Positions 5,388 to 21,164 of a stretch of 64,000 nt of DNA are shown piece by piece; within the stretch, counting starts at the first letter, position 1, and each line of letters starts with the position of its first letter. Location of the stretch: the NCBI GenBank assembly GCA_946185305.1, contig CAMHJE010000002.1, positions 9,263-73,262 of the forward strand. The letters run 5' to 3'. The stretch is from an uncultured Clostridia bacterium. GTDB taxonomy: Bacteria; Bacillota; Clostridia; Christensenellales; CAG-138. Under the pieces are notes generated by a model, which was not told the DNA's origin, searched no databases, and saw only the letters and a list, made by a program, of their open reading frames with translations. Made by a program: the position numbers and the translations under genes.

Positions 5388-7169
<1,782 letters not shown>

Positions 7170-7176
7170 TCATTCA

Positions 7177-7383: not shown

Positions 7384-7781
7384 ATTTTTTCTTCCTCCTG
7401 CTTCGTATGTGCTTTGTACTTCTGTTTCGGACGCTCGCGCTTTGGTATGCTTTGAAGGTCGATCGGAACGTGGCAATAGAGTTCATCTTCGATCCTGTGC
7501 AGATGCTCGGATATATCCCGATGCATTTCCCGGATTTCTTCGTAATGGATGCTTCCGGTGCGGTATGCGATCTTTGCCAGCTTATCCAGATTGCCCAACG
7601 CTTGGAAGAAACCTCCCATCTCTTTCCAGAACTCCGGCGGCGGCAGTTGATTCGGGCAAAAGCCCTCGATCAGAAACCGCAGATATGTTTCCTGAAACAA
7701 TCCACTTTCCTTGACCTGCCGCTTGAATCGGGCAAGTTCTTGATCCGATAGCCGGAACGTGATTTTATTGGTGCGTTTCAT
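7380..7781 (-). CDS. MobC-like ribbon-helix-helix mobilization accessory protein
   Basis: MKRTNKITFRLSDQELARFKRQVKESGLFQETYLRFLIEG matches the MobC/RHH pattern (R..I.FRLS..E...L......G.S...YLR). Start at ATG 7781 with AAGGAGA 8 nt upstream. Confidence 0.6.
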   Translation of the reverse strand: MKRTNKITFRLSDQELARFKRQVKESGLFQETYLRFLIEGFCPNQLPPPEFWKEMGGFFQALGNLDKLAKIAYRTGSIHYEEIREMHRDISEHLHRIEDELYCHVPIDLQSIPKRERPKQKYKAHTKQEEEKI

Positions 7782-7816
7782 GTGTTTGATCTCCTTTTTT
7801 GTCATATGCTGGGGTT

Positions 7817-8012
7817 TAAGGGAACTCCCTTACGTTACGAATTTGGCCGAATGACGGCAAAATTCAATGCTCGCTAATCCAACGCAGCCATGGCTGCATC
7901 GGCTTAGGCCGTTGTGCGGGACACCTTGTCCCGCGTGTCTTCTTTCTTCGCGTGATATGCTGTTTTCAAGGTGCTTGCAAAACAAAAAATGATGATTGTT
8001 AATTATCATCAT
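7817..8012. promoter_or_regulatory. cluster of inverted repeats upstream of MobC-like gene (candidate oriT/operator region)
   Basis: Four palindromes: taagggaactccctta (7817-7832), gcagccatggctgc (7884-7897), gggacaccttgtccc (7918-7932), and atgatgat-N8-atcatcat (7989-8012). Confidence 0.3.
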
Positions 8013-8048
8013 TCTCCACGCAGAATTATAAATGCCGGTTGACAGCTT

Positions 8049-8077
8049 GACAATAGTTTTGTATCATGTTGTTTGTG
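8049..8077 (+). promoter_or_regulatory. sigma-70-like promoter for DUF6076-like gene
   Basis: TTGACA (8049-8054), 17-nt spacer, TATCAT (8072-8077). A ggagaat-ctgt-attctcc inverted repeat (8101-8118) lies between the promoter and the RBS. Confidence 0.5.
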
Positions 8078-8134
8078 ATGATGTGAATACTCCAAATTCA
8101 GGAGAATCTGTATTCTCCAAAAGTGAGGGACAAG

Positions 8135-9691
8135 ATGGATCAAGAAAAAGACTATTCCGAATACGAATTAACGGCGTATGACCGGTATCGGATGCGGCGG
8201 AAGCACCGGAAAGATATTATCTTGGGATATTTCCATAACAAGGTTCGTTTCGATACAGAAAAGCGAATGATCCGCTTTTATGTTGATGATCTGCATGAGA
8301 ATTATTCGATGGACAGCATGATCGACGAATACCTTGCCGAAGAAGAAAAGCGGCGTGGCGCCAAGCTGAAGGACGAGCCGGAAGACAAGGAATATGCTGC
8401 TGCGGAAGTCAAGAAGAATCGGGAGCAGTATGCCCTGCTTCAAAAGAAATACGACATAGAGCGTATGTCGTCGCATGGCGATCCGACCGATTTCTCGTAT
8501 TATCCGACGGATGAAAACGGCAACATTGATTACGAAGCCGAGGAGCCGATTCGTAAGCCGATGAACGATGTGCTCAGCGGAACATGCGTGACCATTCGAT
8601 ATGGCGAAGGAATCTTGGATTTCGTATATGCGGATCTCGTCACGCCGATGAAGGAAAGATACGCTATGTATCGGTTGTTCCGTAAAATACGGGAGAAAGG
8701 AATTGTCGATCTTTCGGAAACAGAACCTGCCGAAGAAGATAAACCGGAAAAGGTGTATAACCGGACGCAGGAGATTGTAGAGCATTACTTTCAGTTTTGC
8801 TCCACCTGCGATGATCTCGGCGATGCGTTGTATGCTTCCCTCTACTCCGCATTGTTCCCGCCGTGCTTTGTTGGATATGACGCGGATACGGATAAAACGA
8901 TGGGGCGGTATGCGGATTATCTGGTAACGCTGCAAAAGGAGTATCGGGAACTCCTTGAGTTCGTTTATGATGAAAACTTCCATCCCGAAGTACTTGGAAA
9001 CCTCTATCCCAGCGAACGATACCGGTTGTATCGGGAAATACATGATCTGCCCGATTTTTATATCCGTCGGGAGGAATTGATGATTTCTCCCGAATATATG
9101 GGCAGTCCGAAGCGTATGCCGTTCGGGATGGAGCACGAGGAATATCTCAACAGAATCATGAAGGCATTTTCCTCGAATTCAACCGAAGCAGAAAAAGCAT
9201 TTGCAGAAGAATACGGATTGGACGCTGGGCACCTTACCATGATGATCCGCCGACCGTCCTTTATGAGCATTCAATACGATGTTTCCACCGCAGCAGAGAT
9301 GTTGGAATTGGAGTTTACGAAGATGCTCGAAGAAAACATTCGCTTTCGCAAATGCAAACGCTGCGGAAAGTATTTCATCATGAAGGGCAATTACGACACA
9401 AACTACTGTGACCGGATCGCAGAGGGCAGCACGCGCACCTGTCAGGAACTTGCGGCAATCGAGAACTACAGAGCGAAGGCAGCGGAAAACAAGGAGTACG
9501 CGCTATACAGCAAATACTACAAACGCTATTCTGCCCGCGTGAAGGTGCGACAGATCAAGGAAGCCGATTTCAAGAAATGGAAGTATCAGGCACTTACGAA
9601 GCGTGATGAATGCGCCGACGGCAAGATCACGGTTGAGGAATATGAAGCGTGGCTCGAAGCGTCATTTGCGAACCGGCAAAAGAAAGGCTGA
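8135..9691 (+). CDS. hypothetical protein, DUF6076-like with C-terminal zinc-ribbon (CKRCGKYF...YCDR...TCQ)
   Basis: 518 aa and acidic, with a conserved-looking C-terminal Cys cluster followed by a basic helical tail. This type of protein commonly sits beside serine recombinases in Clostridia (recalled, not searched). ATG 8135 is preceded by GAGGGA. Confidence 0.4.
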   Translation: MDQEKDYSEYELTAYDRYRMRRKHRKDIILGYFHNKVRFDTEKRMIRFYVDDLHENYSMDSMIDEYLAEEEKRRGAKLKDEPEDKEYAAAEVKKNREQYALLQKKYDIERMSSHGDPTDFSYYPTDENGNIDYEAEEPIRKPMNDVLSGTCVTIRYGEGILDFVYADLVTPMKERYAMYRLFRKIREKGIVDLSETEPAEEDKPEKVYNRTQEIVEHYFQFCSTCDDLGDALYASLYSALFPPCFVGYDADTDKTMGRYADYLVTLQKEYRELLEFVYDENFHPEVLGNLYPSERYRLYREIHDLPDFYIRREELMISPEYMGSPKRMPFGMEHEEYLNRIMKAFSSNSTEAEKAFAEEYGLDAGHLTMMIRRPSFMSIQYDVSTAAEMLELEFTKMLEENIRFRKCKRCGKYFIMKGNYDTNYCDRIAEGSTRTCQELAAIENYRAKAAENKEYALYSKYYKRYSARVKVRQIKEADFKKWKYQALTKRDECADGKITVEEYEAWLEASFANRQKKG

Positions 9692-9843
9692 TCCTGCCGC
9701 CTCTAATCCGCCTTCAGCGCCATCTGATTGTTTTTCCATTGGATAGGCGCTGAAGTAGTAGAACGCTCTGTTGTGGATTAGCCAGCATTGGATTAAGTTT
9801 ACATAATCCGGTCGTAAAGGCGCACCCTTAAACCTCGGCGACA

Positions 9844-11436
9844 TTACAGGCTGAAATCAGCCGTGTTATCACGTTGATAGGAACACCAGTTGCCGTTTTC
9901 GATCAGTTCTTCGCGCGCGATCAATCGAAGCAGCGCATCGGATTCGCCGAAACGGTCAATGCGAGCGAGGACTGCGGCATAAAAGCGCTCCATTTTGACA
10001 TGATCGGATGTTGTGCGCGAAAGCGACAGGCGGCCGTGATAGTTTGAGATAAACAGCGTTGCCGCCGAAATGCTGCCGAGCAGCAGCTTGGACAGCGTGC
10101 GATAGAATTCGGCGTTTGCGATTTTCTGCGAAAACGGCAGCAATCCGCCCCAAATGAGCTCGAAGAGCAACACCGCAAGATACAGCAGAATACTGACCCA
10201 AAGAGCAACGCGGACGATGCGTTCGCTCCCCTTGTCTGCTCGCTTTGACCGACGGACAGACCGTTCGTGATACCTGCGCTGCGCGTCGACCCATGCATCA
10301 CGGATGCGATTTGACCGATCCGGCGGAATGCCGACGGACAGGGCCTTCAGCGCGGCAAAGGTCCATCCGGTTTCCGTCTTGCCAGTCCACGGCAAAACAT
10401 CGGCGGCGGAAATGCCGCTTCCGGCATAGCGCAAAAACGCCTGCACGCGCAGTCCCTCCGCCAGCATCCGATATTCGAGATAGCGCCGGTGCGAAGCAAA
10501 GCGGTTTCCGTACCGCTGCACAAGCCATGCAAGCAGAAGCATCCCGCCGCAAACGAGGATCATCCCGTGCAATTCGGCTTCGTCATACAGAAGAAACGCG
10601 ATCGTGATGACCGTGCTGATGATCGCAAGCGCGGCAAGAATGCGGCGGTACTGTTTAGAAAAGCGAACGCTCAAAGAATCCGCCTTTGCATACAGGGTTT
10701 CTATACGGTCGAGCTGCTTGTCCGGTTCCCGATCCGACGGCAGCAGCGCAAATTCGGATGCGGGCGCTATTTTCGCAAGCCGGTTGAACTCATCGGTTCG
10801 GGTCAGCGTTTCGTCAAAAGCGGTACGGTCGCCGAGAAAACGCACCGCTCCGGCGGCACTCGTTTCGTCGTCTTTACGCGGTGAAAGGATATGCAGCACG
10901 GGGCAGCAGCCGCCGAGCGGGATCGAATTCTGCGGTGCAAACGCGCCGTCCAAGGCGCAATGCACAATTGCCGCCGTGCCGCAGTCGGAAGCGAGCGACT
11001 CCGCTCCGTCCCACAGCGCGAGCAGCACATGGGCGTGCGAAGCAACATAGACGCCCGCCTGCCGATACGCAAAGTCCCGATCCTTCGACGCCGGTGCGCA
11101 TTCCGTGTCGGGCGCAACAAAACAGTCTTCCGCCGCGTCGCAAAGGGCCCGGAAGGCGGGAAGCGCTTCCCCGGAAAAGTCCTTTTCATATTCCGTCTGC
11201 GCCATCGGCAATACTGCGATCAGCGGGATCGAGAGCGACAGCGCGGCCTCGGCGCAAAGCTGATCTGCACCGTCCGCAAGGCTGTTTTGCATCACGATTT
11301 CGGAATGCGGACACCGGCTTTGCAGCGCCATGAGCTCCTGTTTGACTGCGTTGTATAAAACGTCGCGGTCCTCCGTGCGGATGTCCCGGTGTCCCGTTAC
11401 CCCGACGACGATCGGGATCGTATCGTGCAATGTCAT
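9844..11436 (-). CDS. SLOG-like Rossmann domain fused to two SLATT-type 2TM modules (predicted nucleotide-gated membrane effector)
   Basis: N-terminus IPIVVGVTGHRD ... SLADGADQLCAEAALSLSIPLIAVLP ... HVLLALWDG...GT resembles the YpsA/DUF2493/LOG (SLOG) clade. Two hairpin TM pairs follow: ILAALAIISTVITIAFLLY + GMILVCGGMLLLAWLV, and VRVALWVSILLYLAVLLF + LLLGSISAATLFISNY. Each pair is followed by an amphipathic helix (HRRYLEYRMLAEGLRVQ). ATG 11436 is preceded by AAAGGAGA. Confidence 0.6.
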   Translation of the reverse strand: MTLHDTIPIVVGVTGHRDIRTEDRDVLYNAVKQELMALQSRCPHSEIVMQNSLADGADQLCAEAALSLSIPLIAVLPMAQTEYEKDFSGEALPAFRALCDAAEDCFVAPDTECAPASKDRDFAYRQAGVYVASHAHVLLALWDGAESLASDCGTAAIVHCALDGAFAPQNSIPLGGCCPVLHILSPRKDDETSAAGAVRFLGDRTAFDETLTRTDEFNRLAKIAPASEFALLPSDREPDKQLDRIETLYAKADSLSVRFSKQYRRILAALAIISTVITIAFLLYDEAELHGMILVCGGMLLLAWLVQRYGNRFASHRRYLEYRMLAEGLRVQAFLRYAGSGISAADVLPWTGKTETGWTFAALKALSVGIPPDRSNRIRDAWVDAQRRYHERSVRRSKRADKGSERIVRVALWVSILLYLAVLLFELIWGGLLPFSQKIANAEFYRTLSKLLLGSISAATLFISNYHGRLSLSRTTSDHVKMERFYAAVLARIDRFGESDALLRLIAREELIENGNWCSYQRDNTADFSL

Positions 11437-11449
11437 TTCGTCTCCTTTG

Positions 11450-13480
11450 TCAATCAAGCCGATAGATGCGCAGTCCGTCGAACTTGCGGATCAGCTTCAG
11501 CATGGAGTTGAACGGCTTCCAGTCCTTGCCCTGATCCTTCTCGGACAGGTTGAGATAGTGCCGCGCGATCTCCAGCTCCCCAAAATCGCCGTTCATACAC
11601 AGCTTGTGCTGCCGCATCTGCTCCCGCAGCGCATAGCGGTTCGGCTCGTCGTCTGTCGTTACGGTCTCATACAGGCTTCCTGCCGTCCAGCCCATCGCGC
11701 GGTGCGCGCGCACCCAGCGGGCATGCTCCATCGGCGCGAACACGGCGGTCTGCTCGGGGGTGAATGCGCGCAGCATTTCAAAGTCCACGGGGCGATCCGT
11801 ATAGAAGCAGCCGATCGCGTTCAGATATTTCGAAAAGCTCTTGACCTGATTGATATTGCTGAGCTGATATTCGAGCGACATGGTATCAAAATCGCGTTCG
11901 AGCTGCTCTGCCGAGATCTCGTCCTCCCGGCCCTCATACCGATAGCGGCCGTTAATCGCCACCGCAAAATCATACATGTGCAAAAAGCTGCTGCCGGACA
12001 GGTACGTATGCTTGCTCTTGCGATCCGCCGTGCGTATGAACGTCGTGATGAACAGCGGATAGCCGCTTAGATCGACGATCTTTTCAATGTCCGTGCGGAA
12101 GCGCTGTTCGGTTTCCGCCATGTCGCTGTACGCTTTGAGGCGCGGCGGCGCATCCTGCCGGTCGCCCTGCTCCCATGCGCGGTAGCGCGCTTCATATTCT
12201 CCGATCTTTTCGGACTCCTCCGCGTCGAAGCAATAGAGCGCATGGATCATGCCTCTGCCGAAATCGAACTCGGCGTCCATCGGATGCAGTTCGGTGCGTG
12301 AATTCCGACCGTAAGCGGTGCGATCCCAACATTGCAGTTCGTCGCACAACATCAAAAGGTATGCAAGCGGATGCAGCTCAGCCTTCAAGGGTGCTTTATG
12401 CTTTTCCTTATCCTTATAAAACGCAATCGCAAACTTAAACAGGCTGTTGTGCAGCATGATCGCGGTCAATGCATCGACGTGCGCTTCGGTCAACGCCTCT
12501 TCGCCGAGCACCTCGCAAAGCTCCTGATACAGCCGCGTCGCGGAAAAGTATGCGTGATCCATGAAGTACCCGAACCGGTTCGGCTCGGTCGGCTTGCGGC
12601 GGATCGTGTCGCAAAGGTATTCCTCCGTCACCTCGTAAGCCGCGCCGAGGCGCTTGGCAATGCCGTAGGCAAGCAAATCTTCGACGGACTCGAACGGACG
12701 GGAAAACAGCTTTGCAAAGTGCGCCTTTTGCGCGTCGCTCATGCCGGACAGACAATCGAGGTCGCGGTAGGCAAGGTACAAGCTGCCCTTGCCGCGCTTC
12801 TTGCGATCCACCTCAAAGTAGGCCAACACCTGCTCGAACGGGATCTCAAACGGATAGCCGATATCGTGGAACAGCGAGGTCAGGCCCCAGTATTCGAGAA
12901 AGAATGCCGCCGCCCGGTGCTCGTCCGTTCCCGGCGCAAAGCCGTAGAAGCGTTGGAACGTCGTCCGGAACTGCTCGTTCGTTTCATAGATCGCAAGGCC
13001 GAGCGCAAACACGTAGACCGAATGCGAATAGTGGTCGCGGTGCTTCATCAAAAGGGAGCTTGCGTTGGACTCAAATTCCGACAAAAGCTCGATCATCTTG
13101 CTCGACCGCCCATAGGTGCCGAGGAACATCTTCAAAAAGCTGTAATAAACGGTGTAGGCGTCCTCGGCAACACCGGAATCGATGAAGGCTTCCAGCTCGC
13201 GCTCGAGGCAAAGCCGGTCGATGTCCATCTGCATATTGTACGGAATCTGATTCGGATAAAAGCTTGTGCCGAGATACTGCCCGGTTTGCTCCTCCTTCTT
13301 TGCGATCTCCGGCGAAAAGCGCAGCCCCTCGCACCGCTCGTGCAAAAACCGCAGCGCAGCGGACTTCAGATCGCTGCCCGTTCTGCCCGCGCCGAACATC
13401 GCCGGTTCAAACGGACCGACATCCACGTTATAGCGTTCTTTGTTGATCCTTCGCATCTGTTCTAAAGCCGTGTATGCCAT
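11450..13480 (-). CDS. HD-superfamily phosphohydrolase fused to tandem C-terminal RyR domains
   Basis: HD motifs: HYSHS (about aa 150), LFHDIGYP (about aa 205), MLHN (about aa 343), LCDELQCWDR (about aa 379). C-terminal repeats: FAVAINGRY...LEYQLSNINQVKSFSKYLNAIGC and MEHARWVRAHRAMGWTAG...HKL...YLNLSEKDQGKDWKPFNSMLKLI..GLRIYR, matching the RyR-domain pattern. GGAGGA RBS. Confidence 0.65.
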   Translation of the reverse strand: MAYTALEQMRRINKERYNVDVGPFEPAMFGAGRTGSDLKSAALRFLHERCEGLRFSPEIAKKEEQTGQYLGTSFYPNQIPYNMQMDIDRLCLERELEAFIDSGVAEDAYTVYYSFLKMFLGTYGRSSKMIELLSEFESNASSLLMKHRDHYSHSVYVFALGLAIYETNEQFRTTFQRFYGFAPGTDEHRAAAFFLEYWGLTSLFHDIGYPFEIPFEQVLAYFEVDRKKRGKGSLYLAYRDLDCLSGMSDAQKAHFAKLFSRPFESVEDLLAYGIAKRLGAAYEVTEEYLCDTIRRKPTEPNRFGYFMDHAYFSATRLYQELCEVLGEEALTEAHVDALTAIMLHNSLFKFAIAFYKDKEKHKAPLKAELHPLAYLLMLCDELQCWDRTAYGRNSRTELHPMDAEFDFGRGMIHALYCFDAEESEKIGEYEARYRAWEQGDRQDAPPRLKAYSDMAETEQRFRTDIEKIVDLSGYPLFITTFIRTADRKSKHTYLSGSSFLHMYDFAVAINGRYRYEGREDEISAEQLERDFDTMSLEYQLSNINQVKSFSKYLNAIGCFYTDRPVDFEMLRAFTPEQTAVFAPMEHARWVRAHRAMGWTAGSLYETVTTDDEPNRYALREQMRQHKLCMNGDFGELEIARHYLNLSEKDQGKDWKPFNSMLKLIRKFDGLRIYRLD

Positions 13481-13507
13481 GTTGCGTCCTCCGTTTTGTG
13501 TATTGGT

Positions 13508-14914
13508 TTACCGAATCTGCTGTCCATAAGGCGGGCAATAACCGCCGCCGTCCGTTTGCGAATAATAGACCCAGTATAGATGCCCTTCGTAGCCGACCTT
13601 CAAGGTGCTCCATTCCGCGTCGTCGATCGTTTCACCCTCTTCATATTCCGGTACAAAGCCGAAATGCGCCTGCAGCGCTTCAGGCAGAGCGCGGAACACA
13701 TCGACAAGCTTGCTCCCGATATGACCGTTTTCGGTGCGGATTTCATCCAGCACCGGCAAAACAAGCGCGTCGATCGCCGCAAGGTCGCCATTCTTTTGCA
13801 GCCGCTTCACCGCAATCTCCAACGCAAACACACGGTATGTCCAGTCCGGATGCAGCTTGACAATTTCGATCAGTTTTTCCGTCGGAAATGCCGAAAGGCG
13901 GCGCTCCCATTCATCCCTCGAACGACCGCGTCCCATTTTCAAAAGGTCGTTCATCAGCTCGTCGTTGATCGCGCTTTGCGGCAATCGCCGCACGATCTCC
14001 AGCTTGTCCTCGCTTCGATGCTCGTCAAGCATTCCGTACAGCCCTTTCAGATGCGCTGCATCCAGCAAGCCGAGCGCAAGGTTCCGACAAATCGTGCTTT
14101 GCGCCGCGAGGTGCCGCACCAATACATCCTGCTGCGTGTCCGTCAGCGGCGGCAAGCCTTGCCCCTTGCCGTCGTACAGCCAATACAGCGTGCTTGCGGC
14201 TTCCCGGGAAAGATCAGCGTCACGGCTTTGCTCCAAGAGTGCAATTAAGCGGGACGGCTCCGCCAATACTCGCGTGACCGCATATTCCGAACCCTTCAGT
14301 TCGCCGCAAAGGCTCATTCGCAGCACAGCATTTTGAAACGCTTCGCCGCAATGCTGATCCGGCTGCTGCGCCCGCTTCAGCACCGCTTGCGTAACGGCGT
14401 AATCGACGTTCGCGGTCAGCAGGCGCAAAAGCGCGTCTTCGCTGTTGATTTTGGCAACGGCGTCCCAAGCGGATTCGGTCACTTCCCGATCAAGCAGCAG
14501 TTTCAAAAGAGCCGCCTCGTCCGGCGCTGCGGCGATCGCCTTCGTTTCATGCTCCCGCAACAGCGCAACGGTCTTTGCTTCGACCGGGTAGAGACTTGCC
14601 GTTTCCCGGCTCCAATGCTTTGCCGAGGCCTTGACCGCAAGCAAGTACGCACGCTCCTTCGGCATTCGCTCGAACGCGGCCATGCGAACCTCTGTCCGGG
14701 CGTCCGATGTGACGATCTCTAAAAGCGCTTCGGGATCCTCGATCCCGTCGATCACGGACTGTGCGAGCGGCAGCAGTTCCTGCTGCCGACAGGCGATCGC
14801 GCATACCGCTTTTTCCGCGTCGATTTTCAGCAACTTACTGTACAGCCGCTTTCCCCAAACCGGCACGTGTTCGTTTTGGCAGAGTCGGGCGATCCTTTCA
14901 AACTGTTTTGTCAT
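13508..14914 (-). CDS. hypothetical helical-repeat (HEAT/PBS-lyase-like) protein
   Basis: 468 aa and mostly alpha-helical. Recurring ..D.EALL.L(L)......VR.AA motifs (EDPEALLEIVTSDARTEVRMAAFERM; DEAALLKLLLD; SEDALLRLL). Short Gly/Tyr-rich C-terminal tail. ATG 14914 is preceded by GGGAGG, 10 nt after the upstream stop. Confidence 0.4.
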   Translation of the reverse strand: MTKQFERIARLCQNEHVPVWGKRLYSKLLKIDAEKAVCAIACRQQELLPLAQSVIDGIEDPEALLEIVTSDARTEVRMAAFERMPKERAYLLAVKASAKHWSRETASLYPVEAKTVALLREHETKAIAAAPDEAALLKLLLDREVTESAWDAVAKINSEDALLRLLTANVDYAVTQAVLKRAQQPDQHCGEAFQNAVLRMSLCGELKGSEYAVTRVLAEPSRLIALLEQSRDADLSREAASTLYWLYDGKGQGLPPLTDTQQDVLVRHLAAQSTICRNLALGLLDAAHLKGLYGMLDEHRSEDKLEIVRRLPQSAINDELMNDLLKMGRGRSRDEWERRLSAFPTEKLIEIVKLHPDWTYRVFALEIAVKRLQKNGDLAAIDALVLPVLDEIRTENGHIGSKLVDVFRALPEALQAHFGFVPEYEEGETIDDAEWSTLKVGYEGHLYWVYYSQTDGGGYCPPYGQQIR

Positions 14915-14924
14915 GCCCGCCTCC

Positions 14925-17900
14925 CTATTCGATTTCCAGTTCAAATCCGTATTCGTCGCCCAGGGATCGAATCGCGGACTGCATATTGTTTGACACACAC
15001 GCCGCACGAAGATGCTGCAGCGTCAAAAGCGGCGAAATGTCGGTCAGTTCCGGCGTCCATGATACCTTGATGTATTCGAGTTCCGGGTGCTGCTCGATGA
15101 AGCTTCGGAATGTCTCGTTGGTGAAGCGACAGCCGCCCGCGTGAATCTCGTGGATTTTCACATCCTTCACGGCGTCCATCCAAAGCGCGCAGTCCGTGTT
15201 GAACACATTGAGACTTTGATACTCCGGCACGGCGGACAGCACCGCATACTGCTCACCCGGGATTTTCCCCTGCAAATTATCTACGCCGAGAACAAAATAT
15301 GGCACATTGCCGTCCTCGTCCGGCGTCATACAGAACGTATAGTCGATTTTGGCGATCGCGCTGATGTCCGTGAGGTCGTTGCCACCGATATTGAGATCGG
15401 TCAGATGCGGAAGCTTCTCAACGCCCTCGATCGAAGTGACCGTTTCCGTGTCCTCCACGCTGATGATCTCGAGCGTCTCCAGATCGAACAGCGGAGACAG
15501 ATCGGAAAGATTTGCCCATTTGGCTTGGAATCGGCGCAGCTTTGCAGCCGCCTCGATCCCGCCGAGCGATTCGATCGGCTGTCCGTATAGATACAGCGTT
15601 TCAAGATTCGGAAGTCGATTCAAAAATGCAAGATCGGCAATCGATCCTTCCCCGATCGGGAAGCGCTCGCCGGTTGCGTTGTCGTGAATATACAAGTCCG
15701 GTTTGTCGCCGCCGTCCCAGTCCTCTTCGAGCCACAGTTCGCCCCACGGATCTTTCGTTACATAGTTGCCGAAGAACCCGACCTCGCGGATGCGGGACAG
15801 CACGTTGTCCGGCAGGGCAAGGAACTCGTCTTTGGTCATCAACGGGATTTCGAAAGCAAAATCACAGTCCTCCGAAATCGCACCAAGTGGGGTGAGATCG
15901 TCGAGCTTGAGTCCGTTCAGATCTGCCCGTTGCAGCTTCTGGAGGTTTTGGATGCCTTGTATGCTTGTCACGCCGGTATATTGCAGCCGAAGCTCTTCCA
16001 GCTCCTGCAGAGTGAATGCCGGGGAAGCATCCGTCAGGGTCGGCGTGAACGAAAGTTCGAGATTCTTCAACTTCTGCAGATTCTGAATCCCCTCGATCGA
16101 CGTCAGCGACTGATCGATCAGGTTCAGATATTCGAGTCCGGTCAGCTTGGACAGCTTGGAAAAATCGGTCATTGTACCGGGGTGCTCGATTGCGATATCA
16201 TGGCTGGGGTCACCGTCGTTCGACCGCAGTACAAAGGTCGGTTTGTCGTCATCCCATTGCTGATCGAGCCAATATTCCTCCCAGGAGAAGATCGTGTCGC
16301 CGACTGCATGCAGATCCTTCACGCGGCTCAATACCGCGCTTGGCAGCGTGTCGAGCTCGTCGAACGACAAGAGCTTCACGTCAAACTCGGCGGGTTGCCA
16401 CCATTCGTCCGGATAGACGACCTCGTAATTGCGGAAATTACCACTGTCCACAAGCAGCTGCGCCTGCTCCTGAAGATGCGCCGGGACCTTCAGCACGTTG
16501 CCTTTTTTGATCCCGTACAGCGGGGAAAGGTCGGTCACGTCGTTGGTTTCGATCAGCTCGATCGAAACGCTCTTTTCGGGGTTCATGCCGTCGAAGCACT
16601 GCAGATCATGGAGATCGACCGGCGTGCAAAGCGAGATCCAATCCGCTTCGAACGTCAAGAAATCGGGCAGGGTAAAGGTGCTGTCCAGATAGATCTGGTT
16701 GAATTTCAATCCGTTCATCGCTGACCAGTCAGTCAAGCGCGGACAGCCGGTGATTTCCAGATACAGCGTGCCGTAGCGCGTAGCAAGCAGGTTCTGAATA
16801 CCGTCGAGCGAGGTTAAAAGCTGCGAATCGTCAATGATCAACCGATGCAGCGAAAGCTCCGGCATGCCCGAAAGCGACACGACGCCGTGCAGCAGCAGCT
16901 CCTGGGAGACATGCGGGAACAGCGACCAGTCGAGCGGTTCTCGGCTCCAATCGCTGTAGCCGCTGCGGCACCAAAGCTCAAATTCGTGGATTGTCGCATT
17001 CTTGATATAGGGCAAGGCGCTGCCGGTGCGGTCTGTGACGTTCAGATAGTTATAGTTTTTGATCGCTTCCAGTCCCGACCAGTCCTCCACCTCGGCAATG
17101 CCGAAGGAAAAGCCGTCCTTGTTGACGACATCCCAAAGGAAATTGACATCGTGCAGATCGGAGCCGTAGATGGCAAGATCGTTAAGGTGCGGCAGCTTCA
17201 CGATCGGAGAGATGTCCGCAAGATCGAAGACGCGATTCAGGTGAACCTGCTGAATTCCCGTGCAGCTTTCGAGCGCGGAGATGTCGGAAAGATGATCAAG
17301 CCCCTCGATATACACGCGCCGCAGACTTGTATGGTCTTCCAGGCCATGCAGGTTCCGGACGCTGTGCATACCCCAAAGGGCCAGTTCTTCGAGATTCTTT
17401 GCGTTTTCGAGCCAAGAAAGGTCGGACAGCGCATCGTTGTGCAGGTCAACGAATTTCAGACTTGTATTGTCCGAAAGCGCGGACATGTCAGATAGGTCTT
17501 CGCTTTGATAATCCACAAACAGGCGCGTCAGGCTTTGATGATCCTGCAGCCCGTTGATGCTTCGAAGCTCCGACAGGTTCACAAGCTCCAGTTCGCGGAG
17601 CTTCTTGGACGCGGAAAGACAGTCGAGATCGGTCAAAGGCAGACTGTCGAGCCGAACGAGCGAAAGCTCGGAACAGTTTTGCAGACCGGACAGGTCGATC
17701 ATCCGTGCCGTGCTGTCGGTGTCAAGGTAAAGCTCGGTCAAATTCGGCGGTCCGAAGGACGTCAGATCGGAGGGGATCGGATCGAACAGCGTCAGATTCG
17801 CATAGCGAAGCCGTTCGCAATCGGACAGCGGCGAAAAGTCCGTCAAAGAATTGCCGGAATAGCCGAAGCTGCGGATGCGCGTGTGTTTCAACCCGGCAAG

Positions 17901-18773
17901 GCTCGTGACGCCACAATCGAACAGCTCGACAACGTCAAGCTGTTCCAGTCCGGACAGCTCGGGAAGCTCGCCAATGACCCGCACCAGTGTGATGAACTTC
18001 ACATTCTTCATGTACCGCAAAAAGTCGAGATCGTTCCATTCCGCCGTCCCGATCTCGTGTCCATCCTCCTTGCTGTACCAATGCCTTTTGCCTTCCTCCT
18101 CGGTGCGGTTGACAAAGTACTCCGCGCCGATACGCGCCCAGCCGTTCTGCTTCGCAATCCCCTCATCACCGGTGAAGTAGTGCAGCGTATCGCCGACGAT
18201 GATCAGCTCATAGACCTTTTCGAGATCCTCGGCGGTAAGCCCCGCTTCGGAGGGAATGACCGGTTCCGCCGTCGGCGCGGGTGTGCTCTCCGGCAGCATC
18301 GTTTCCTTTGCGGGCAGCAGTTTTGTTGCAAGGAAGATACCTCCGGCGATCACGAGCGCGGCGGCAGCGGCCGCAAGGATGATCGGCAAAGGCTTTTTTG
18401 TTGCTTCAAACGGCTTTGCGGTTGCGATACGCTGTGCAAGCTCTTCTACGGAGTACCGTTCGGCGAAGATCGTGTTGCGGGAATACAGCGCGTTTTTCAG
18501 CAGCTCCGGCGGCGTTGAGCCGTCGAGGTTTATCGGCACCGTCTCCACGCCCTTCGCGTCATTGGCGAAGAACGTTTCCATAAGTGTGATGGCTTCGTTC
18601 AGTCGTTCGGACATGAACAGCAGCATGACGCCGCTTTTCTTCGGCATTTCGCTTTCGTCTGCGATCGGAAATCCCTTTGCCCGCAGCGCATCGAGGATCG
18701 GTGCGACGCGTTCTTTGTCGGCTTTGGCATAAAGGGGAAACAACTTCATTTTTCGGTACGTCATCTTTGCCAT
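14925..18773 (-). CDS. TIR-like domain / single TM / very large leucine-rich-repeat ectodomain protein (1282 aa)
   Basis: N-terminus KLFPLYAKADKERVAPILDALRAKGFPI...VMLLFMSERLNEA (divergent TIR-like fold, no signal peptide). TM PLPIILAAAAAALVIAGGIFLATKLL and a Pro/Thr linker. About 1,100 aa follow of internalin-like ~22-residue LRRs (L..L..L..L.L....L.D(I/L)S.L) in at least three modules. No LPXTG motif. Confidence 0.65.
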   Translation of the reverse strand: MAKMTYRKMKLFPLYAKADKERVAPILDALRAKGFPIADESEMPKKSGVMLLFMSERLNEAITLMETFFANDAKGVETVPINLDGSTPPELLKNALYSRNTIFAERYSVEELAQRIATAKPFEATKKPLPIILAAAAAALVIAGGIFLATKLLPAKETMLPESTPAPTAEPVIPSEAGLTAEDLEKVYELIIVGDTLHYFTGDEGIAKQNGWARIGAEYFVNRTEEEGKRHWYSKEDGHEIGTAEWNDLDFLRYMKNVKFITLVRVIGELPELSGLEQLDVVELFDCGVTSLAGLKHTRIRSFGYSGNSLTDFSPLSDCERLRYANLTLFDPIPSDLTSFGPPNLTELYLDTDSTARMIDLSGLQNCSELSLVRLDSLPLTDLDCLSASKKLRELELVNLSELRSINGLQDHQSLTRLFVDYQSEDLSDMSALSDNTSLKFVDLHNDALSDLSWLENAKNLEELALWGMHSVRNLHGLEDHTSLRRVYIEGLDHLSDISALESCTGIQQVHLNRVFDLADISPIVKLPHLNDLAIYGSDLHDVNFLWDVVNKDGFSFGIAEVEDWSGLEAIKNYNYLNVTDRTGSALPYIKNATIHEFELWCRSGYSDWSREPLDWSLFPHVSQELLLHGVVSLSGMPELSLHRLIIDDSQLLTSLDGIQNLLATRYGTLYLEITGCPRLTDWSAMNGLKFNQIYLDSTFTLPDFLTFEADWISLCTPVDLHDLQCFDGMNPEKSVSIELIETNDVTDLSPLYGIKKGNVLKVPAHLQEQAQLLVDSGNFRNYEVVYPDEWWQPAEFDVKLLSFDELDTLPSAVLSRVKDLHAVGDTIFSWEEYWLDQQWDDDKPTFVLRSNDGDPSHDIAIEHPGTMTDFSKLSKLTGLEYLNLIDQSLTSIEGIQNLQKLKNLELSFTPTLTDASPAFTLQELEELRLQYTGVTSIQGIQNLQKLQRADLNGLKLDDLTPLGAISEDCDFAFEIPLMTKDEFLALPDNVLSRIREVGFFGNYVTKDPWGELWLEEDWDGGDKPDLYIHDNATGERFPIGEGSIADLAFLNRLPNLETLYLYGQPIESLGGIEAAAKLRRFQAKWANLSDLSPLFDLETLEIISVEDTETVTSIEGVEKLPHLTDLNIGGNDLTDISAIAKIDYTFCMTPDEDGNVPYFVLGVDNLQGKIPGEQYAVLSAVPEYQSLNVFNTDCALWMDAVKDVKIHEIHAGGCRFTNETFRSFIEQHPELEYIKVSWTPELTDISPLLTLQHLRAACVSNNMQSAIRSLGDEYGFELEIE

Positions 18774-18809
18774 GGTGGGCCTCCTTGTCCTGTGCTAAGG
18801 GGAAATGGG

Positions 18810-19985
18810 TTACGGGACTAAAATGACATCGAACGCCGCATCGTCCGGGAAGATCAGCAGCAGCATATCGATACTCACAGTCACGGTCTCAAGCGATGGC
18901 TGTGCGTTCAGCACGGAAAGGTCGCGCACATTGCTGTGCTCCAGATGGAGGGTTTTAAGGCTCGGCAGAACCGGCAGCGTCGAAAGGTCCACGCGTTCGC
19001 ACCCCGCAAGGTTCAGTTCGTTCAGCAGCACAAGCCGATTGAGCGCGGCAAGCGACTGTACCGGCTGCATGAGAAGAGAAAGCGCCTTTAGATACGGCAT
19101 GCGCCCGATCACGGAAAGATCCTCGACAGGACCCGTCAGCGGCTTTGCGCCGTTTACGGCGTATGCGCCGTCTGTGAAAGCGACACCGGATAAATCGTTC
19201 AGCACCATCGTGCCGCAAAAATGCAGTTCCGTCACGCCGCCGAGATCGGACAGTGTTATATCGCCATCAGGAATACCCAGCGCGTTGCGCACCGCTGCTT
19301 CCTGCTTTGCATCGGGGAACGCGACCGTATCCATGCCGGGAACATACGGTGTCGCCGTCGGCTCCGGCGTTTCGGTCGGCACAGGCGTGGGGGTCGGCGT
19401 CAGTCGTGCCGTAGGTACGGGTGTCGGGTTTGGCAGGAGATAGGCGTCCAATCGACCGGTCATAAGCGCATACAGACCTGCCGCTGCAGCGGCAAACAGC
19501 AGCATCGCAAGCACAAGCATCAACCAATCAAACCGCAGTTTTTCAAACGGCTTGCGATAATATGCGCGCGTGATCTGTTTGCAGGAAAGAATGGTTTCGG
19601 CACGCGCAGATGCATCGGAACTGGACGAAAGCCTTGTGCATTGTGAAAGCAGATCGTTCCATTCTGCGTTCGGCGCCGTATCCGAAAGCGGCAGCAGCAG
19701 AACCGGCTTCTTCAGAACAAGCGCTGCTTCGATCTCGCTTCGGCAGTTGGGTGAAGCAAAAGCTGTTTCGGAAACAAAGAACAACACCATAGAGCAGCTT
19801 TGCATATGCTCTTCGATGTTCTTCGGCCAATCGCTGCCCGCCGGAATGCCCTCGTCGTACCACAGTCGCAGTTTGCGGTTGTGCAGCAGTGTAATGGCTT
19901 TCAGAACCGCTTCGGAATCGCGGTGCGAATAACTGATGAAAAGATAGGGACGGCGACCCTCATATGGCTTAAAGTAGACGCTCAT
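18810..19985 (-). CDS. TIR domain / single TM / PT-linker / LRR ectodomain protein (391 aa)
   Basis: Canonical bacterial TIR_2-type motifs: RPYLFISYSHRDSEAV, RLWYDEGIPAGSDW, MVLFFVSETAFASPNCRSEIEAAL (candidate catalytic Glu at aa 84). TM WLMLVLAMLLFAAAAAGLYALM, then PNPTPVPTARLTPTPTPVPTETPEPTATP, then FPDAKQEAAVRNALGIPDGDITLSDL followed by LRRs. The ATG overlaps the upstream stop (ATGA). Confidence 0.8.
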   Translation of the reverse strand: MSVYFKPYEGRRPYLFISYSHRDSEAVLKAITLLHNRKLRLWYDEGIPAGSDWPKNIEEHMQSCSMVLFFVSETAFASPNCRSEIEAALVLKKPVLLLPLSDTAPNAEWNDLLSQCTRLSSSSDASARAETILSCKQITRAYYRKPFEKLRFDWLMLVLAMLLFAAAAAGLYALMTGRLDAYLLPNPTPVPTARLTPTPTPVPTETPEPTATPYVPGMDTVAFPDAKQEAAVRNALGIPDGDITLSDLGGVTELHFCGTMVLNDLSGVAFTDGAYAVNGAKPLTGPVEDLSVIGRMPYLKALSLLMQPVQSLAALNRLVLLNELNLAGCERVDLSTLPVLPSLKTLHLEHSNVRDLSVLNAQPSLETVTVSIDMLLLIFPDDAAFDVILVP

Positions 19986-20791
19986 GATCCGCCTCCCGTC
20001 AGCACGATATCATACCGTTCGAGAAGCGGAGCGGCATCGACCGCGTTCGTCTGATTCAGTTCAATTCGGGAAAGATTGGAAAGCAGGGCAAACTCATCCG
20101 TGCGTTCGGGTAAAGTGTCAAAACGAAGTGTCGTAACCGTTACAATCGACTCTTCGGTGATCGGTTCGCCGCTGAGCGCGTCGCGTACCGCTGCAGTCAG
20201 AACGGGATCGGAAAAGAAAACAGTATCACCATTTTTTTCGATCGATGGCGCGCGAAGACGTCGTACAAGAACCGCTGCGCCGATCAGCAGAAACGCCGCG
20301 GCGACAATTGCGGCTGCGATCGCAAGAACAGCCTTTTTGCGAACGGGCAGCGGAGGGCCGATCAACTCATGCGAAAATCCGTCTGCATGGAGCAATGCTG
20401 CTTCCGCCGCATCGACGCTGCACAGCTTGATATGCACTGCGCGCGAATCCAACCCCATGGACAGCGTGCTTTCCGCATTATCTACGTCGACGCTGATGAT
20501 CGGGATGCTTTTCTCCTGACAAACGAGTACTGCGCTCTTTACCGCCTGATCCGTACGCGCACGTTTGGTTTGATACAGAACCACAAGCCGTGCCTTGCGC
20601 ATACGCGCATCGCGCCGTTCGCGCTCTGCTACGGTGCCGCTGTGCCCCGTGGGGTACCAGATGCGGCAGCCGCGTTCGTACAGCCGTCGAAACAGCGGCC
20701 GCAGCCGATCTTTATCCGCATCTGAAAAGCAAAAATACAGATACGGCTGATCGCCGCCGTACGGCGGAAAAAGCTCCGAAAACCTCGCCAT
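19982..20791 (-). CDS. TIR-like domain / single TM / short LRR-type ectodomain protein (269 aa)
   Basis: QPYLYFCFSDADKDRLRPLFRRLYERGCRIWY parallels the PYLFISYSHRD...WYD motifs of the neighbouring TIR. TM AVLAIAAAIVAAAFLLIGAAVLV. C-terminal DPVLTAAVRDALSGEPITEESI... LRR-cap-like segment. ATG 20791 is preceded by GGGGAGGA. Confidence 0.6.
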   Translation of the reverse strand: MARFSELFPPYGGDQPYLYFCFSDADKDRLRPLFRRLYERGCRIWYPTGHSGTVAERERRDARMRKARLVVLYQTKRARTDQAVKSAVLVCQEKSIPIISVDVDNAESTLSMGLDSRAVHIKLCSVDAAEAALLHADGFSHELIGPPLPVRKKAVLAIAAAIVAAAFLLIGAAVLVRRLRAPSIEKNGDTVFFSDPVLTAAVRDALSGEPITEESIVTVTTLRFDTLPERTDEFALLSNLSRIELNQTNAVDAAPLLERYDIVLTGGGS

Positions 20792-20825
20792 TCGTATCCT
20801 CCCCGCGCGCTCCGCTTTTGCTTCT

Positions 20826-20869
20826 ATACTACCAAAATATATCGTATACGCAAATGCTGTTTCTGTCAA
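20826..20869 (-). promoter_or_regulatory. candidate promoter of the TIR-LRR/SLOG operon
   Basis: On the minus strand: TTGACA (20864-20869), 17-nt spacer, TACGAT (20841-20846). A second TGgTAGTAT extended -10 lies at 20826-20834. Confidence 0.4.
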
Positions 20870-20991
20870 TCCCAAATGTAAAAAGCGCCAGAACTGTTAC
20901 AGTTTCAAGTCAGACGCCATGCGTATCCATCTGCTTCCGTACCGATGGTTCCGCGCTCCTTCATTTCCTAAGAGCGGTTCTCAATCGGTGC

Positions 20992-21018
20992 AAAGAAAAA
21001 GGCGCATTGCTGCGCCTT
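20992..21018 (-). terminator. orphan Rho-independent terminator (minus strand) in intergenic region
   Basis: Perfect 8-bp stem aaggcgca / tgcgcctt with a ttgc loop. On the minus strand it is followed by TTTTTCTTTG. No annotated minus-strand gene lies upstream of it. Confidence 0.5.
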
Positions 21019-21164
21019 CGAGCATCTTGTCTGATATTCAAAAAACATGCGGAGAAAACACTCTGCTTTCTCCACATATCCTTAGCCCTTACTGCAAAGC
21101 CCGATATGGATTATTTGCTTCCTTATCGGTGTCCCGCAATACCGGGCTTTTTTCGCATTGAGAA

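Follow-up and report, generated by a model that had tools for sequence, protein, structure and literature searches.

The window, the 64,000-nucleotide stretch of DNA from an uncultured Clostridia bacterium that was analysed here, contains an 11-kb cassette of genes on the minus strand (Table 1). It encodes three TIR-TM-LRR proteins and a RyR-domain partner, and its last gene encodes a protein that combines a SLOG domain with four membrane helices, here called the SLOG-4TM protein. A promoter-like site is found ahead of the operon, at 20869..20841.

Table 1 Coordinates of the SLOG-4TM gene, the domains it encodes, and the neighbouring genes of the cassette.
Feature	Position	Strand	Description
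SLOG-4TM gene	9844..11436	minus	530 aa, intact; stop codon 9844-9846
SLOG domain, aa 5-200	10837..11424	minus	YpsA/DprA/YAcAr clade; predicted cytoplasmic; GVTGHR loop, G56-A-D58, YRQAG and ALWDG...CGT motifs
2TM module 1, aa 240-340	10417..10719	minus	Juxtamembrane helix, TM1 (nt 10579-10647), DEAE hairpin, TM2 (nt 10501-10563)
2TM module 2 and C-terminal helices, aa 379-530	9847..10302	minus	Juxtamembrane helix, TM3 (nt 10153-10221), TM4 (nt 10039-10107)
Shine-Dalgarno sequence AGGAGA	11441..11446	minus	4 nt before ATG 11436 (5 nt spacing by the usual downstream-edge count)
Partner gene, 676 aa	11450..13480	minus	C-terminal RyR-type domain; gene end 13 nt from the SLOG-4TM start codon
469-aa all-helical protein gene	13508..14917	minus	Insertion specific to the window's lineage
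1282-aa protein gene	14925..18773	minus	Divergent TIR-like N-terminus, single TM helix, long ectodomain of internalin-like LRRs
391-aa TIR-TM-LRR gene	18810..19985	minus	Canonical TIR_2 domain; SxxCxxE-type glutamate E84 (motif read from sequence)
~269-aa TIR-like-TM gene, short LRR	19982..20791	minus	Opens the operon; inferred start codon ATG 20791

The longest open reading frame at the SLOG-4TM locus (9844..11457, minus strand) is initiated by TTG and would give a protein of 537 residues. The sequence places the true start at the ATG at 11436, which is preceded by the Shine-Dalgarno sequence and gives a protein of 530 residues; the TGA stop of the gene upstream is at 11452..11450. More than 642 full-length homologues were found, with identities of 51–93% among the matches listed, and 25 aligned sequences share 78 invariant columns, so that the gene is clearly not a chance reading frame. 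The AlphaFold2 model of the protein has a pLDDT of 85.8 and a pTM of 0.84.

The three TIR paralogues are all predicted to have the same arrangement, with a single TM helix linking an N-terminal TIR domain inside the cell to an internalin-like LRR on the outside. The 391-residue protein matches Pfam TIR_2 (E 4.6e-17), ThsB_TIR (5.9e-4) and LRR_4, as well as the generic ThsB models of PADLOC (E 2.5e-5). The protein of about 269 residues lacks a catalytic-type glutamate and matches TIR_2 weakly (E 0.0038), and was reached at E 4e-41 by an iterative search starting from the 391-residue TIR. The N-terminus of the 1282-residue protein was reached in the same way; its remaining features are a TM helix, read from the sequence, and matches to LRR_4 (E 1e-21) and to internalin models. 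PADLOC left the LRR protein unmatched.

The 676-residue partner itself has no match in Pfam, NCBIfam, PDB-sequence, Foldseek or PADLOC searches. It is homologous (BLASTP 1e-34) to proteins of 575 residues that occupy the same position elsewhere and match the RyR domain PF02026 (E 2e-14). HD-like motifs (HSVYVF...LFHDIGYP...LCDELQCWDR) were noticed in the partner by eye only, and are given little weight. The 469-residue protein has no family match in profile searches. The corresponding segment of the window (13492..14920) is missing from a 92%-identical locus (L017), and the gene is also missing from three further loci (L005, L006 and L008).

Domain organisation of the SLOG-4TM protein

The protein consists of an N-terminal SLOG domain followed by two 2TM hairpins, each with a juxtamembrane helix before it and conserved cytoplasmic helices after it. 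The initial annotation, which had only the sequence to go on, quoted four Rossmann-type motifs in the N-terminal region and proposed a SLOG-like domain of the YpsA/DUF2493 kind. All four motifs are present in the translation (IVVGVTGHRD, LADGADQLCAEAA, PLIAVLPM and LLALWDG..CGTA), and the assignment is borne out by profile and structural matches. Pfam YAcAr matches the N-domain in 24 of 25 family members, with a best E of 3.5e-5 (the window's protein scores 17.6 bits, the gathering cut-off being 28.2), and one homologue, P0037, has a precomputed PF10686 match. Foldseek against the PDB retrieved SLOG/LOG-type structures, the top match being B. subtilis YpsA (2nx2; E 1.8e-4, TMt 0.63), followed by DprA, ShosA, TM1055 and (type-II) LOG, all at a probability of 0.9–1.0. 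Matches in BFVD were to a DprA-like phage protein (E 6e-6, TMt 0.79), to YspA/cpYpsA SLOG, and to DUF2493 proteins. The residues G12, G15, H16, D58, R125, Q126, W142, G144, C152 and G153 are invariant in the SLOG domains of the 25-sequence alignment; the first three of them belong to the glycine-rich GVTGHR loop that follows strand 1. The GxD/E motif, defined as the substrate-binding motif of the YpsA clade (PMC6459960), is intact as G56-A-D58, with G56 conserved in at least 90% of the sequences and D58 in all of them.

Hydropathy and the AlphaFold2 model place the membrane helices at residues 264–286 (TM1), 292–312 (TM2), 406–428 (TM3) and 444–466 (TM4) of the 530-residue protein. The TM pairs originally given as aa 272–313 and 414–473, in the numbering of the 537-residue frame, agree with these after subtraction of 7. 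The predicted cytoplasmic flanks carry 4, 5, 9 and 4 lysines and arginines, and the two outer loops 0 and 1. On the basis of this distribution around the four helices, the SLOG domain and both termini are predicted to be intracellular. The helix preceding TM1 is continuous with it (H240–287) and is moderately amphipathic (muH 0.45), whereas the helix following TM2 (residues 315–337), in which conservation is higher than anywhere else in the protein (0.86 in the family alignment, A1), is charged, with a muH of only 0.11. The description of conserved amphipathic helices on both sides of the first TM pair thus holds for the amphipathicity of the helix before TM1 and for the conservation of the helix after TM2, but the latter is not amphipathic.

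Across 33 sequences with 27–67% identity, the invariant residues include Y284, E426, G454 and Y466, which lie inside TM helices or end them. This would suggest that the TM region is more than a mere anchor. Mean column identity in alignment A1 is 0.74 for the TM helices, 0.69 for the juxtamembrane regions and 0.67 for the SLOG domain. Foldseek searches with the TM region returned ABC-transporter noise alone, with TM-scores of 0.1 or below, and sequence searches of the PDB, using either the single protein or a profile from the diverse alignment, gave nothing useful.

The first 2TM module ends in a conserved HRRYLEYRxLAExLRVQ helix. Pfam DUF4231 matches residues 251–334 of the window's protein with an E of 5.7e-4 and a score of 20.7 bits, against a threshold of 24.7. 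The same family matches module 1 in 23 of 25 members and 22 of 33 (best 9.2e-8), and exceeds its threshold in some homologues, as seen from precomputed PF14015 matches and from the NCBI name of one of them (P0020, 'DUF4231 domain-containing protein'). We take DUF4231 to be a member of the Pfam SLATT clan. NCBIfam SLATT_3 and SLATT_1 also match this region of the window's protein, and among the 33 diverse members they match module 1 in 16 (best 8e-7) and 9 (best 6e-6) respectively. By these profile matches, module 1 is a DUF4231/SLATT-type 2TM unit.

The second module has a 13-residue outer loop between TM3 and TM4, and continues into three cytoplasmic helices, the last of which ends in a AREELIENGNWCSYQRDN motif. 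NCBIfam SLATT_4 matches it in 13 of 25 members (best E 1e-5) and in 12 of 33 (best E 3.3e-6), all of the matches being sub-threshold, since the best score is 25.5 bits and the curated cut-off is 55. Profile positions of about 6–105 (of 154) align with residues of about 386–497, in a consistent register in 8 of 10 sequences. Unrelated models, including PRK09209 and DUF2207_C, reach comparable E values (1e-3 to 1e-6) on the same sequences, and a Pfam search with module 2 alone found no SLATT family. We therefore regard the second 2TM unit (residues 379–497) as SLATT_4-like, which is probable rather than proven. The proposal of two SLATT-type modules is accordingly firm for module 1, with its DUF4231, SLATT_3 and SLATT_1 matches, and tentative for module 2. 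The further proposal, that the pair arose by tandem SLATT duplication, was not upheld: an hhalign comparison of the two module profiles fell short of significance (E 0.026 with 25 sequences and 0.12 with 33 diverse ones, probability below 2%), and the modules are collinear only in the order of their elements.

Distribution and gene context

Clustering at 50% identity puts the number of clusters in which the 4TM unit is conserved at 417 or more. The unit is present in no fewer than 130 species genomes, and almost all of these belong to ruminant-gut Clostridia. In most family members it is fused to the SLOG domain in one chain. The architecture had been considered unusual; the 4TM unit is in fact the rule in hundreds of clusters, and a 'SLOG and 4TM' class beside TIR genes has already been catalogued (discussed below). 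Relatives were found solely in Clostridia, Family XIII and one Tannerella MAG, and a search outward from a distant member (P0387) retrieved no relatives from Streptomyces or Nitrospira.

Versions of 325 residues also exist, in which the 4TM unit occurs without SLOG. Their genes are solitary, with no TIR or SLOG neighbour. An origin of these versions by splitting of a longer gene was considered and rejected, as the genes upstream encode an unrelated oxidoreductase C-terminus and a C_GCAxxG protein. That the 4TM unit exists without SLOG suggests that it has a function of its own.

The gene context was surveyed in 58 loci with at least 8.5 kb of upstream sequence. The TIR set and the partner occur together in 20 of these; a further 18 have just the TIR set, 14 have just the partner, and the remaining 6 lack both, so that one or both are present in 52 of the 58. 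TIR genes on the same strand and within 9 kb are found in at least 38 loci; the TIR profile used leaves 20 loci without a TIR gene, and this is an undercount, since it missed a TIR of locus L013 that Pfam detects. The distant loci L013 and L014 also have TIR genes. The partner gene adjoins the SLOG-4TM gene in 34 of the 58 loci. The SLOG-4TM gene is in an operon with TIR genes, an association that persists in relatives down to about 33% identity; taken together with the RyR partner, the operon link is kept from 93% to about 32% identity. The SLOG-4TM/TIR cassette is common in rumen Clostridia. The cassette (window 9825..21129) is differently flanked in a 92%-identical genome.

Possible functions

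Given that the protein combines a SLOG domain with SLATT-type helices, and that its gene is the terminal gene of a TIR-receptor operon, it is probably a Thoeris-like membrane effector. We infer this ligand-gated role from domain identity and gene context, and estimate the probability at roughly 60% that the SLOG-4TM protein is the inner-membrane effector of a TIR-based, Thoeris-like cassette, gated by a NAD-derived signal made by a TIR protein. When the receptor set is triggered, the 391-residue TIR, which is the only one with a catalytic-type glutamate (E84), would convert NAD+ into an ADPR-derived signal. This would bind to the SLOG domain and make the 4TM unit change conformation or oligomerise, so that the membrane is permeabilised or depolarised, with growth arrest or death of the cell as the outcome. 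The path may be lined by conserved acidic residues found where TM1 (Y284-D285-E286) and TM3 (E426) meet the outside, and the RyR-domain partner would probably modulate either the effector or the signal.

The proposal has precedents in Thoeris types I, III and VII and in the catalogued 'SLOG and 4TM' class, which are compared below. Several observations count against it. The genes around the cassette are housekeeping genes and not a defence island; conservation of the partner (65% identity at rank 120) is higher than is usual for a defence gene; the TIR proteins have extracellular LRRs, unlike the cytoplasmic ThsB sensors; and there are the loci that appear TIR-less by the undercounting profile, and the solitary SLOG-less genes. 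PADLOC v2 (2023), which does not include Thoeris types III–XI, gave no match to the SLOG-4TM protein or its relatives. The two systems of similar description that were assayed in E. coli showed no phage defence (see below), the SLATT matches of module 2 are sub-threshold, and a motif of the SLOG domain that is like the catalytic motif of LOG leaves some room for an enzymatic role. The same housekeeping neighbours, the strong purifying selection on the partner, and the topology of the three TIR paralogues would fit with a non-lethal signalling pathway from outside to inside, in which the LRRs sense a surface or extracellular cue, the TIRs make a messenger, and physiology is controlled, without killing, by the SLOG-4TM protein acting as a reversible ligand-gated ion channel that the RyR partner tunes. 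The cassette is also widespread and well conserved within one habitat (130 species genomes, nearly all from the ruminant gut), and there is a precedent in the cation channel TRPM2, which is gated by a SLOG domain (PMC13143021). Against this, every role known or predicted for SLATT modules to date is that of a killing or arrest effector, the variable flanks and patchy composition of the cassette resemble those of mobile conflict systems, and no feature indicating ion selectivity can be read in the sequence. We consider this explanation rather unlikely. The large extracellular LRRs on the TIR proteins hint that the surface of the cell, and not its cytoplasm, is where sensing takes place, which if true would be new for bacterial TIR systems. 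A more specific version is a pathway with the topology of Toll-like receptors, in which three receptors with LRR out and TIR in sense an event at the surface (phage adsorption, wall damage, or a molecule from host or neighbour) and produce an ADPR-derived messenger that opens a SLOG-gated 4TM channel, assisted by the RyR-domain protein. This is speculative and we regard it as unlikely; if correct, it would be a prokaryotic counterpart of the cADPR/ADPR-gated cation channels RyR and TRPM2, and no TIR signalling system before it would have had its trigger outside the cell.

Two further explanations turn on the nature of the SLOG domain. It could be an enzyme, either a membrane-tethered N-glycosidase or a nucleotide processor, that makes or destroys the signal, with the 4TM unit there to position it or to link it with another partner. 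SLOG domains of the LOG clade are N-glycosidases, viral YpsA-like SLOGs have been proposed to degrade cADPR-type signals (PMC9503650), the domain keeps a conserved GCGTxE motif that recalls the catalytic motif GGxGTxxE of LOG, and LOG and TM1055 are among the structures matched by Foldseek. However, it is the YpsA/DprA/YAcAr clade and not LOG that gives the best matches, both in structure and in profile searches, the TM and juxtamembrane regions are as well conserved as the SLOG domain, and the 4TM unit occurs without SLOG, which together make an enzyme improbable. Far more improbable still is the alternative offered in the initial annotation, a DprA-like N-domain that binds DNA, which would make the protein a membrane-anchored factor handling ssDNA. 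DprA structures (5mll, 3uqz and 4ljk) and the DprA-like ShosA do occupy Foldseek ranks 2–10, the third BFVD match is annotated as DprA-like, and one diverse member matches Pfam DNA_processg_A (E 0.0026). Yet it is YpsA that comes first in the PDB search and YAcAr that is the consistent Pfam match, the accessory domains of DprA (SAM, winged helix) are absent, and the context is one of TIR, LRR and RyR proteins, with no competence or recombination genes.

Recognition of a TIR-made nucleotide by SLOG, and membrane effectors of the SLATT type, have each been established separately; the SLOG-4TM family joins both in one chain. If the membrane-effector proposal is true, the family would provide a compact model of how ligand binding to SLOG is relayed to a membrane pore, which is the same question that is posed by TRPM channels. 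The members are at present annotated only as hypothetical or as DUF4231, and a known function would annotate thousands of genes.

Comparison with known systems

The SLOG domain is close to YpsA (2nx2), its best match among solved structures, and to the YAcAr/DUF2493 SLOG family. The identity to YpsA is 18% and the Pfam scores are under the gathering level. YpsA itself is soluble, has a single domain, and has been connected with cell division and with GpsB. The TRPM channels, including TRPM2, share the logic of an N-terminal cytoplasmic SLOG for an ADPR-type ligand (of the LSDAT type, MHR1/2), fused to a permeation unit (PMC13143021). This is an analogy only, since the TRP pore has 6TM and is unrelated to the 4TM SLATT-type unit, and the SLOG clade differs. 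It may be set beside this analogy that the operon containing the SLOG-4TM gene also encodes a RyR-type domain.

The closest description is that of 'SLOG and 4TM' proteins beside a TIR gene, listed as putative Thoeris effectors (Yirmiya et al. 2025, bioRxiv 10.64898/2025.12.03.692087, Table S2). These have a like architecture, a TIR-gene context, and a predicted response to a TIR-made signal, the comparison being by description only. Two such systems (from Streptomyces sp. GKU 895 and Ca. Nitrospira nitrosa COMA1) gave no phage defence in E. coli (Yirmiya et al. 2025). The catalogued systems are two-gene operons, whereas the rumen cassette has three TIR-TM-LRR genes and the RyR-domain partner.

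Of the known Thoeris types, three are relevant here. In type I, the SLOG of ThsA (SIR2-SLOG) is the receptor for a TIR-made ADPR derivative and binds 3'cADPR (Yirmiya et al. 2025; PMC13276650); the output there is SIR2, in place of the 4TM SLATT-type unit of the SLOG-4TM protein. Type III has several TIRs and a DprA-type SLOG effector, ThsD (Yirmiya et al. 2025; PMC13276650), and thus, compared by description only, resembles the rumen cassette in having several TIR paralogues together with a SLOG of the DprA/YpsA type (DprA/SMF in ThsD) and not of the STALD type. Type VII, consisting of the ThsB TIR and ThsH, shares with the cassette a TIR gene and a SLATT-type membrane effector. ThsH responds to canonical cADPR (Yirmiya et al. 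2025), and is presumed to form oligomers and disrupt the membrane once its ligand has bound. It is described only as SLATT, with ligand pockets between SLATT protomers, and compared with this arrangement the SLOG-4TM protein adds a SLOG sensor and a second 2TM module.

Gene, family and N-terminal domain

The SLOG-4TM protein has 530 residues and is encoded on the minus strand. Reading of open reading frames gives a 537-aa version with a TTG start (9844..11457), but the true start is the ATG at 11436, with AGGAGA ahead of it at 11446..11441, which confirms the coordinates of the initial annotation. The TGA stop codon of the upstream gene lies at 11452..11450, and the two genes are therefore tightly packed.

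More than 642 relatives were identified among 5.8 billion proteins. Of these, the 120 best are nearly all full length (approximately 530 aa), are 51–93% identical to the SLOG-4TM protein, derive from MAGs of Clostridia, Lachnospiraceae and Oscillospiraceae, and almost all lack a protein name. When a single genome was scanned for each species, relatives were present in 130 species. Nearly all of the 80 loci retained are from ruminant gut MAGs, the closest being a Clostridia MAG from goat reticulum (92% identical). Walking out from a 30%-identical relative reached Family XIII and one Tannerella MAG. The alignment of 25 close sequences has 78 invariant columns. The protein is thus a member of a real, large family.

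By hydropathy, three segments are strongly hydrophobic and a fourth is less so. The AlphaFold2 model, generated from the 25-sequence alignment, is confident (pLDDT 85.8, pTM 0.84), and has an α/β domain at residues 9–201, followed by a long helix (240–287), helices 292–313 and 315–337, a second long helix (379–428), a helix at 442–468, and three more up to the C-terminus. The predicted cytoplasmic flanks contain 4, 5, 9 and 4 Lys and Arg residues, against 0 and 1 in the two short outer loops, and therefore the N-terminal domain, the segment between the two membrane modules, and the C-terminus are cytoplasmic. The initial annotation is borne out overall, with one correction: of the conserved amphipathic helices that it described around the first TM pair, the one after TM2 is indeed very conserved, but is charged rather than amphipathic.

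The N-terminal domain is a SLOG domain, and its earlier placement in the YpsA/DUF2493/LOG clade was right. All four motifs originally noted are present in the translation. The Pfam family YAcAr ('YspA, cpYpsA-related SLOG family') matches 24 of the 25 close members (best E 3.5e-5, every score being below the gathering score). Foldseek against the PDB gives B. subtilis YpsA (2nx2) as the top match (E 1.8e-4, TM-score 0.63 on the target), followed by DprA, the DprA-like defence protein ShosA, TM1055 and a type-II LOG. The top named matches in a search of viral models are a DprA-like phage protein (TM 0.79), several 'YspA cpYpsA-related SLOG' proteins and DUF2493 proteins. [quoted passage not shown]

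The two membrane modules

Module 1, the first 2TM unit (aa 240–340), is matched by Pfam DUF4231 in 23/25 close and 22/33 diverse members (best E 9.2e-8), and NCBIfam SLATT_3 and SLATT_1 match the same residues. Some homologues exceed the curated threshold and bear the NCBI name 'DUF4231 domain-containing protein'. From these sequence matches we consider module 1 to be a SLATT-type unit, largely as initially proposed.

Module 2 (aa 379–497) has no match in Pfam. NCBIfam SLATT_4 matches it in 13 of the 25 and 12 of the 33 members (best E 1e-5 and 3.3e-6), these being related sequences and hence not independent trials, with all scores far below the 55-bit cut-off. The matches keep a consistent register, which takes in the juxtamembrane helix, the two TM helices and the helix after them; unrelated models (RNR subunit, DUF2207_C) match the same sequences at E 1e-3 to 1e-6. 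We rate module 2 as probably SLATT_4-like, and the earlier SLATT call for this TM pair is tentative. The tandem SLATT duplication also proposed is not demonstrated, the profile-profile comparison of the two modules being not significant (E 0.026 and 0.12). Their elements are collinear in order, and any duplication, if one occurred, was ancient.

Nor is the tandem unit unusual, as had been supposed. A module 2 profile matched 417 proteins at E <= 1e-3 among 1.84 billion cluster representatives, and the four-helix unit is the rule. Among 150 of the 417, most are 485–660 aa long and share the architecture of the SLOG-4TM protein, with module 2 C-terminal. Another class of matches, approximately 300–350 aa, has both modules without SLOG, and the two such genes inspected are genuine stand-alone genes with unrelated neighbours. 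These encode P0262 (locus L010, 484–1461) and P0284 (L012, 512–1525), of approximately 325–337 aa; their neighbours include a sugar ABC transporter and a C_GCAxxG protein, and neither locus has a TIR or SLOG gene close by.

Residues that do not vary in the 33 diverse sequences (27–67% identity) include one at the outer end of TM1 (Y284), one in TM3 (E426) and two in TM4 (G454 and Y466). The membrane modules match the SLOG domain in conservation, which argues for a membrane function rather than a plain anchor.

The operon and its surroundings

The SLOG-4TM gene is the last of six in a minus-strand operon.

Genes of the operon, in order of transcription (window coordinates)
Product	Position	Strand	Features
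~269-aa protein	~19982..20791	-	TIR-like domain, TM helix, short LRR
391-aa protein	18810..19985	-	TIR_2 (E 4.6e-17), TM helix, Pro/Thr linker, LRR
1282-aa protein	14925..18773	-	TIR-like N-terminus, TM helix, long internalin-like LRR
469-aa protein	13508..14917	-	all-helical; no family match
676-aa partner	11450..13480	-	no family match of its own
530-aa SLOG-4TM protein	9844..11436	-	last gene of operon

The N-termini of the 269-aa and 1282-aa proteins were recovered by iterative search from the 391-aa TIR, and only the 391-aa protein keeps a catalytic-type glutamate (E84, SxxCxxE-type). The three paralogues (14925–20791) share one layout: a TIR or TIR-like domain in the cytoplasm, a single TM helix, a linker rich in Pro and Thr, and an internalin-like LRR domain outside the cell. 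This is the topology of a Toll-like receptor with the order reversed. Many related loci have the trio too, the genes measuring approximately 0.85, 1.2 and 3–3.9 kb.

The 676-aa partner is homologous (E 1e-34) to 575-aa proteins in the same position in other loci, which carry a Pfam RyR domain (E 2e-14), and through these we infer an RyR-type domain at its C-terminus. The structure search gave no match for it. Its family is very large and strongly conserved (more than 2202 matches, 65% identity at rank 120), without family annotation, and HD-like motifs can be seen by eye (HSVYVF, LFHDIGYP, LCDELQCWDR).

In relatives at 53–67% identity the order TIR-like, TIR-LRR, long LRR, RyR partner, SLOG-4TM is kept beside differing housekeeping genes, and relatives at 32–36% identity retain the RyR partner, a TIR gene or both. 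Of the 58 loci whose upstream flank reaches at least 8.5 kb, the partner and the TIR set occur together in 20; 18 carry the TIR set without the partner, 14 the partner without the TIR set, and 6 lack both, the TIR count being a lower bound (the lineage profile missed the Pfam-detected TIR of locus L013). The link to TIR genes suggested initially is largely right.

Similarity to L017, the locus of a 92%-identical genome, spans 21129 to 9825 and ends on both sides, and the 469-aa gene (13492..14920) is absent from it. The unit is thus an 11-kb cassette with a lineage-specific insertion. The 469-aa gene sits between the long LRR and partner genes, and the less closely related loci L005, L006 and L008 lack it as well. 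At eight Ruminococcaceae/Oscillospiraceae-type loci (L042, L050, L052, L056, L058, L059, L060, L070), ORF spacing suggests that the TIR trio directly abuts SLOG-4TM with no RyR partner, in which case some lineages can do without it. At L014 (4402–8379), a 619-aa relative (33% identity) lies downstream of a TIR_2 gene and of a 335-aa gene whose match to Orn_Arg_deC_N is weak; the latter replaces the RyR partner as the middle component in an operon of the same kind.

Approximately 150 nt past the SLOG-4TM stop codon, and beyond the end of the L017 similarity, begins a block of low GC (5388–9691; 0.48 against approximately 0.59). It encodes a large serine recombinase (Resolvase, Recombinase, Zn_ribbon_recom, DUF4368), a NikA-like protein and a DUF6076 protein, and therefore looks like an integrated mobile element. 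A second contig, L001, which codes for an identical SLOG-4TM protein, has these neighbours too. On the other side, approximately 3.7 kb upstream of the cassette, is a solitary gene (24584–25330, minus strand) for a 248-aa protein that has a Walker A motif (GENGTGKST) and is ABC/AAA-like in its C-terminal part.

Proposed mechanism and known systems

The domain identities (tentative for module 2), topology and gene linkage of the SLOG-4TM protein are shown by the analysis. We hypothesise that a catalytic TIR would generate an NAD-derived nucleotide, which would be bound by the SLOG domain; the 4TM unit would then change conformation or oligomerise, and so permeabilise the membrane. We give this whole chain a probability of roughly 0.6. 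The main rival, which we regard as rather unlikely, has the same wiring serving reversible, non-lethal signalling from the cell surface, and would fit the extracellular LRR domains of the TIR proteins, the strong conservation of the partner and a context that is not a defence island. It is improbable that the SLOG domain is enzymatic. A DprA-like role in DNA binding is most improbable. The DprA-like alternative raised in the initial annotation concerns an adjacent clade within the superfamily, and the surrounding genes do not speak for it. The most interesting side of the system is its sensors, three TIR proteins of Toll-like-receptor topology that would feed a SLOG-gated membrane unit accompanied by a partner with a putative RyR domain.

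SLOG and SLATT were reportedly defined by Burroughs et al. in 2015, and this exact architecture may be drawn there. In type I Thoeris, 3'cADPR is sensed by a SLOG domain; in type III, several TIR genes accompany a SLOG effector of the DprA/SMF type, of uncharacterised signalling; and in type VII, the TIR acts together with a SLATT effector responding to canonical cADPR (bioRxiv 10.64898/2025.12.03.692087; PMC13276650). TIR-SLATT neighbourhoods occur in Firmicute phages (PMC9503650), and eukaryotic TRPM channels have an N-terminal SLOG-type domain, which in TRPM2 binds ADPR (PMC13143021). 'SLOG and 4TM' is catalogued among putative effectors beside TIR genes, and two such systems, one each from Streptomyces and Nitrospira, conferred no defence on E. 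coli (bioRxiv 10.64898/2025.12.03.692087); the likeness to these is one of described architecture and TIR neighbour. The protein described here is a new variant of an already known type of system.
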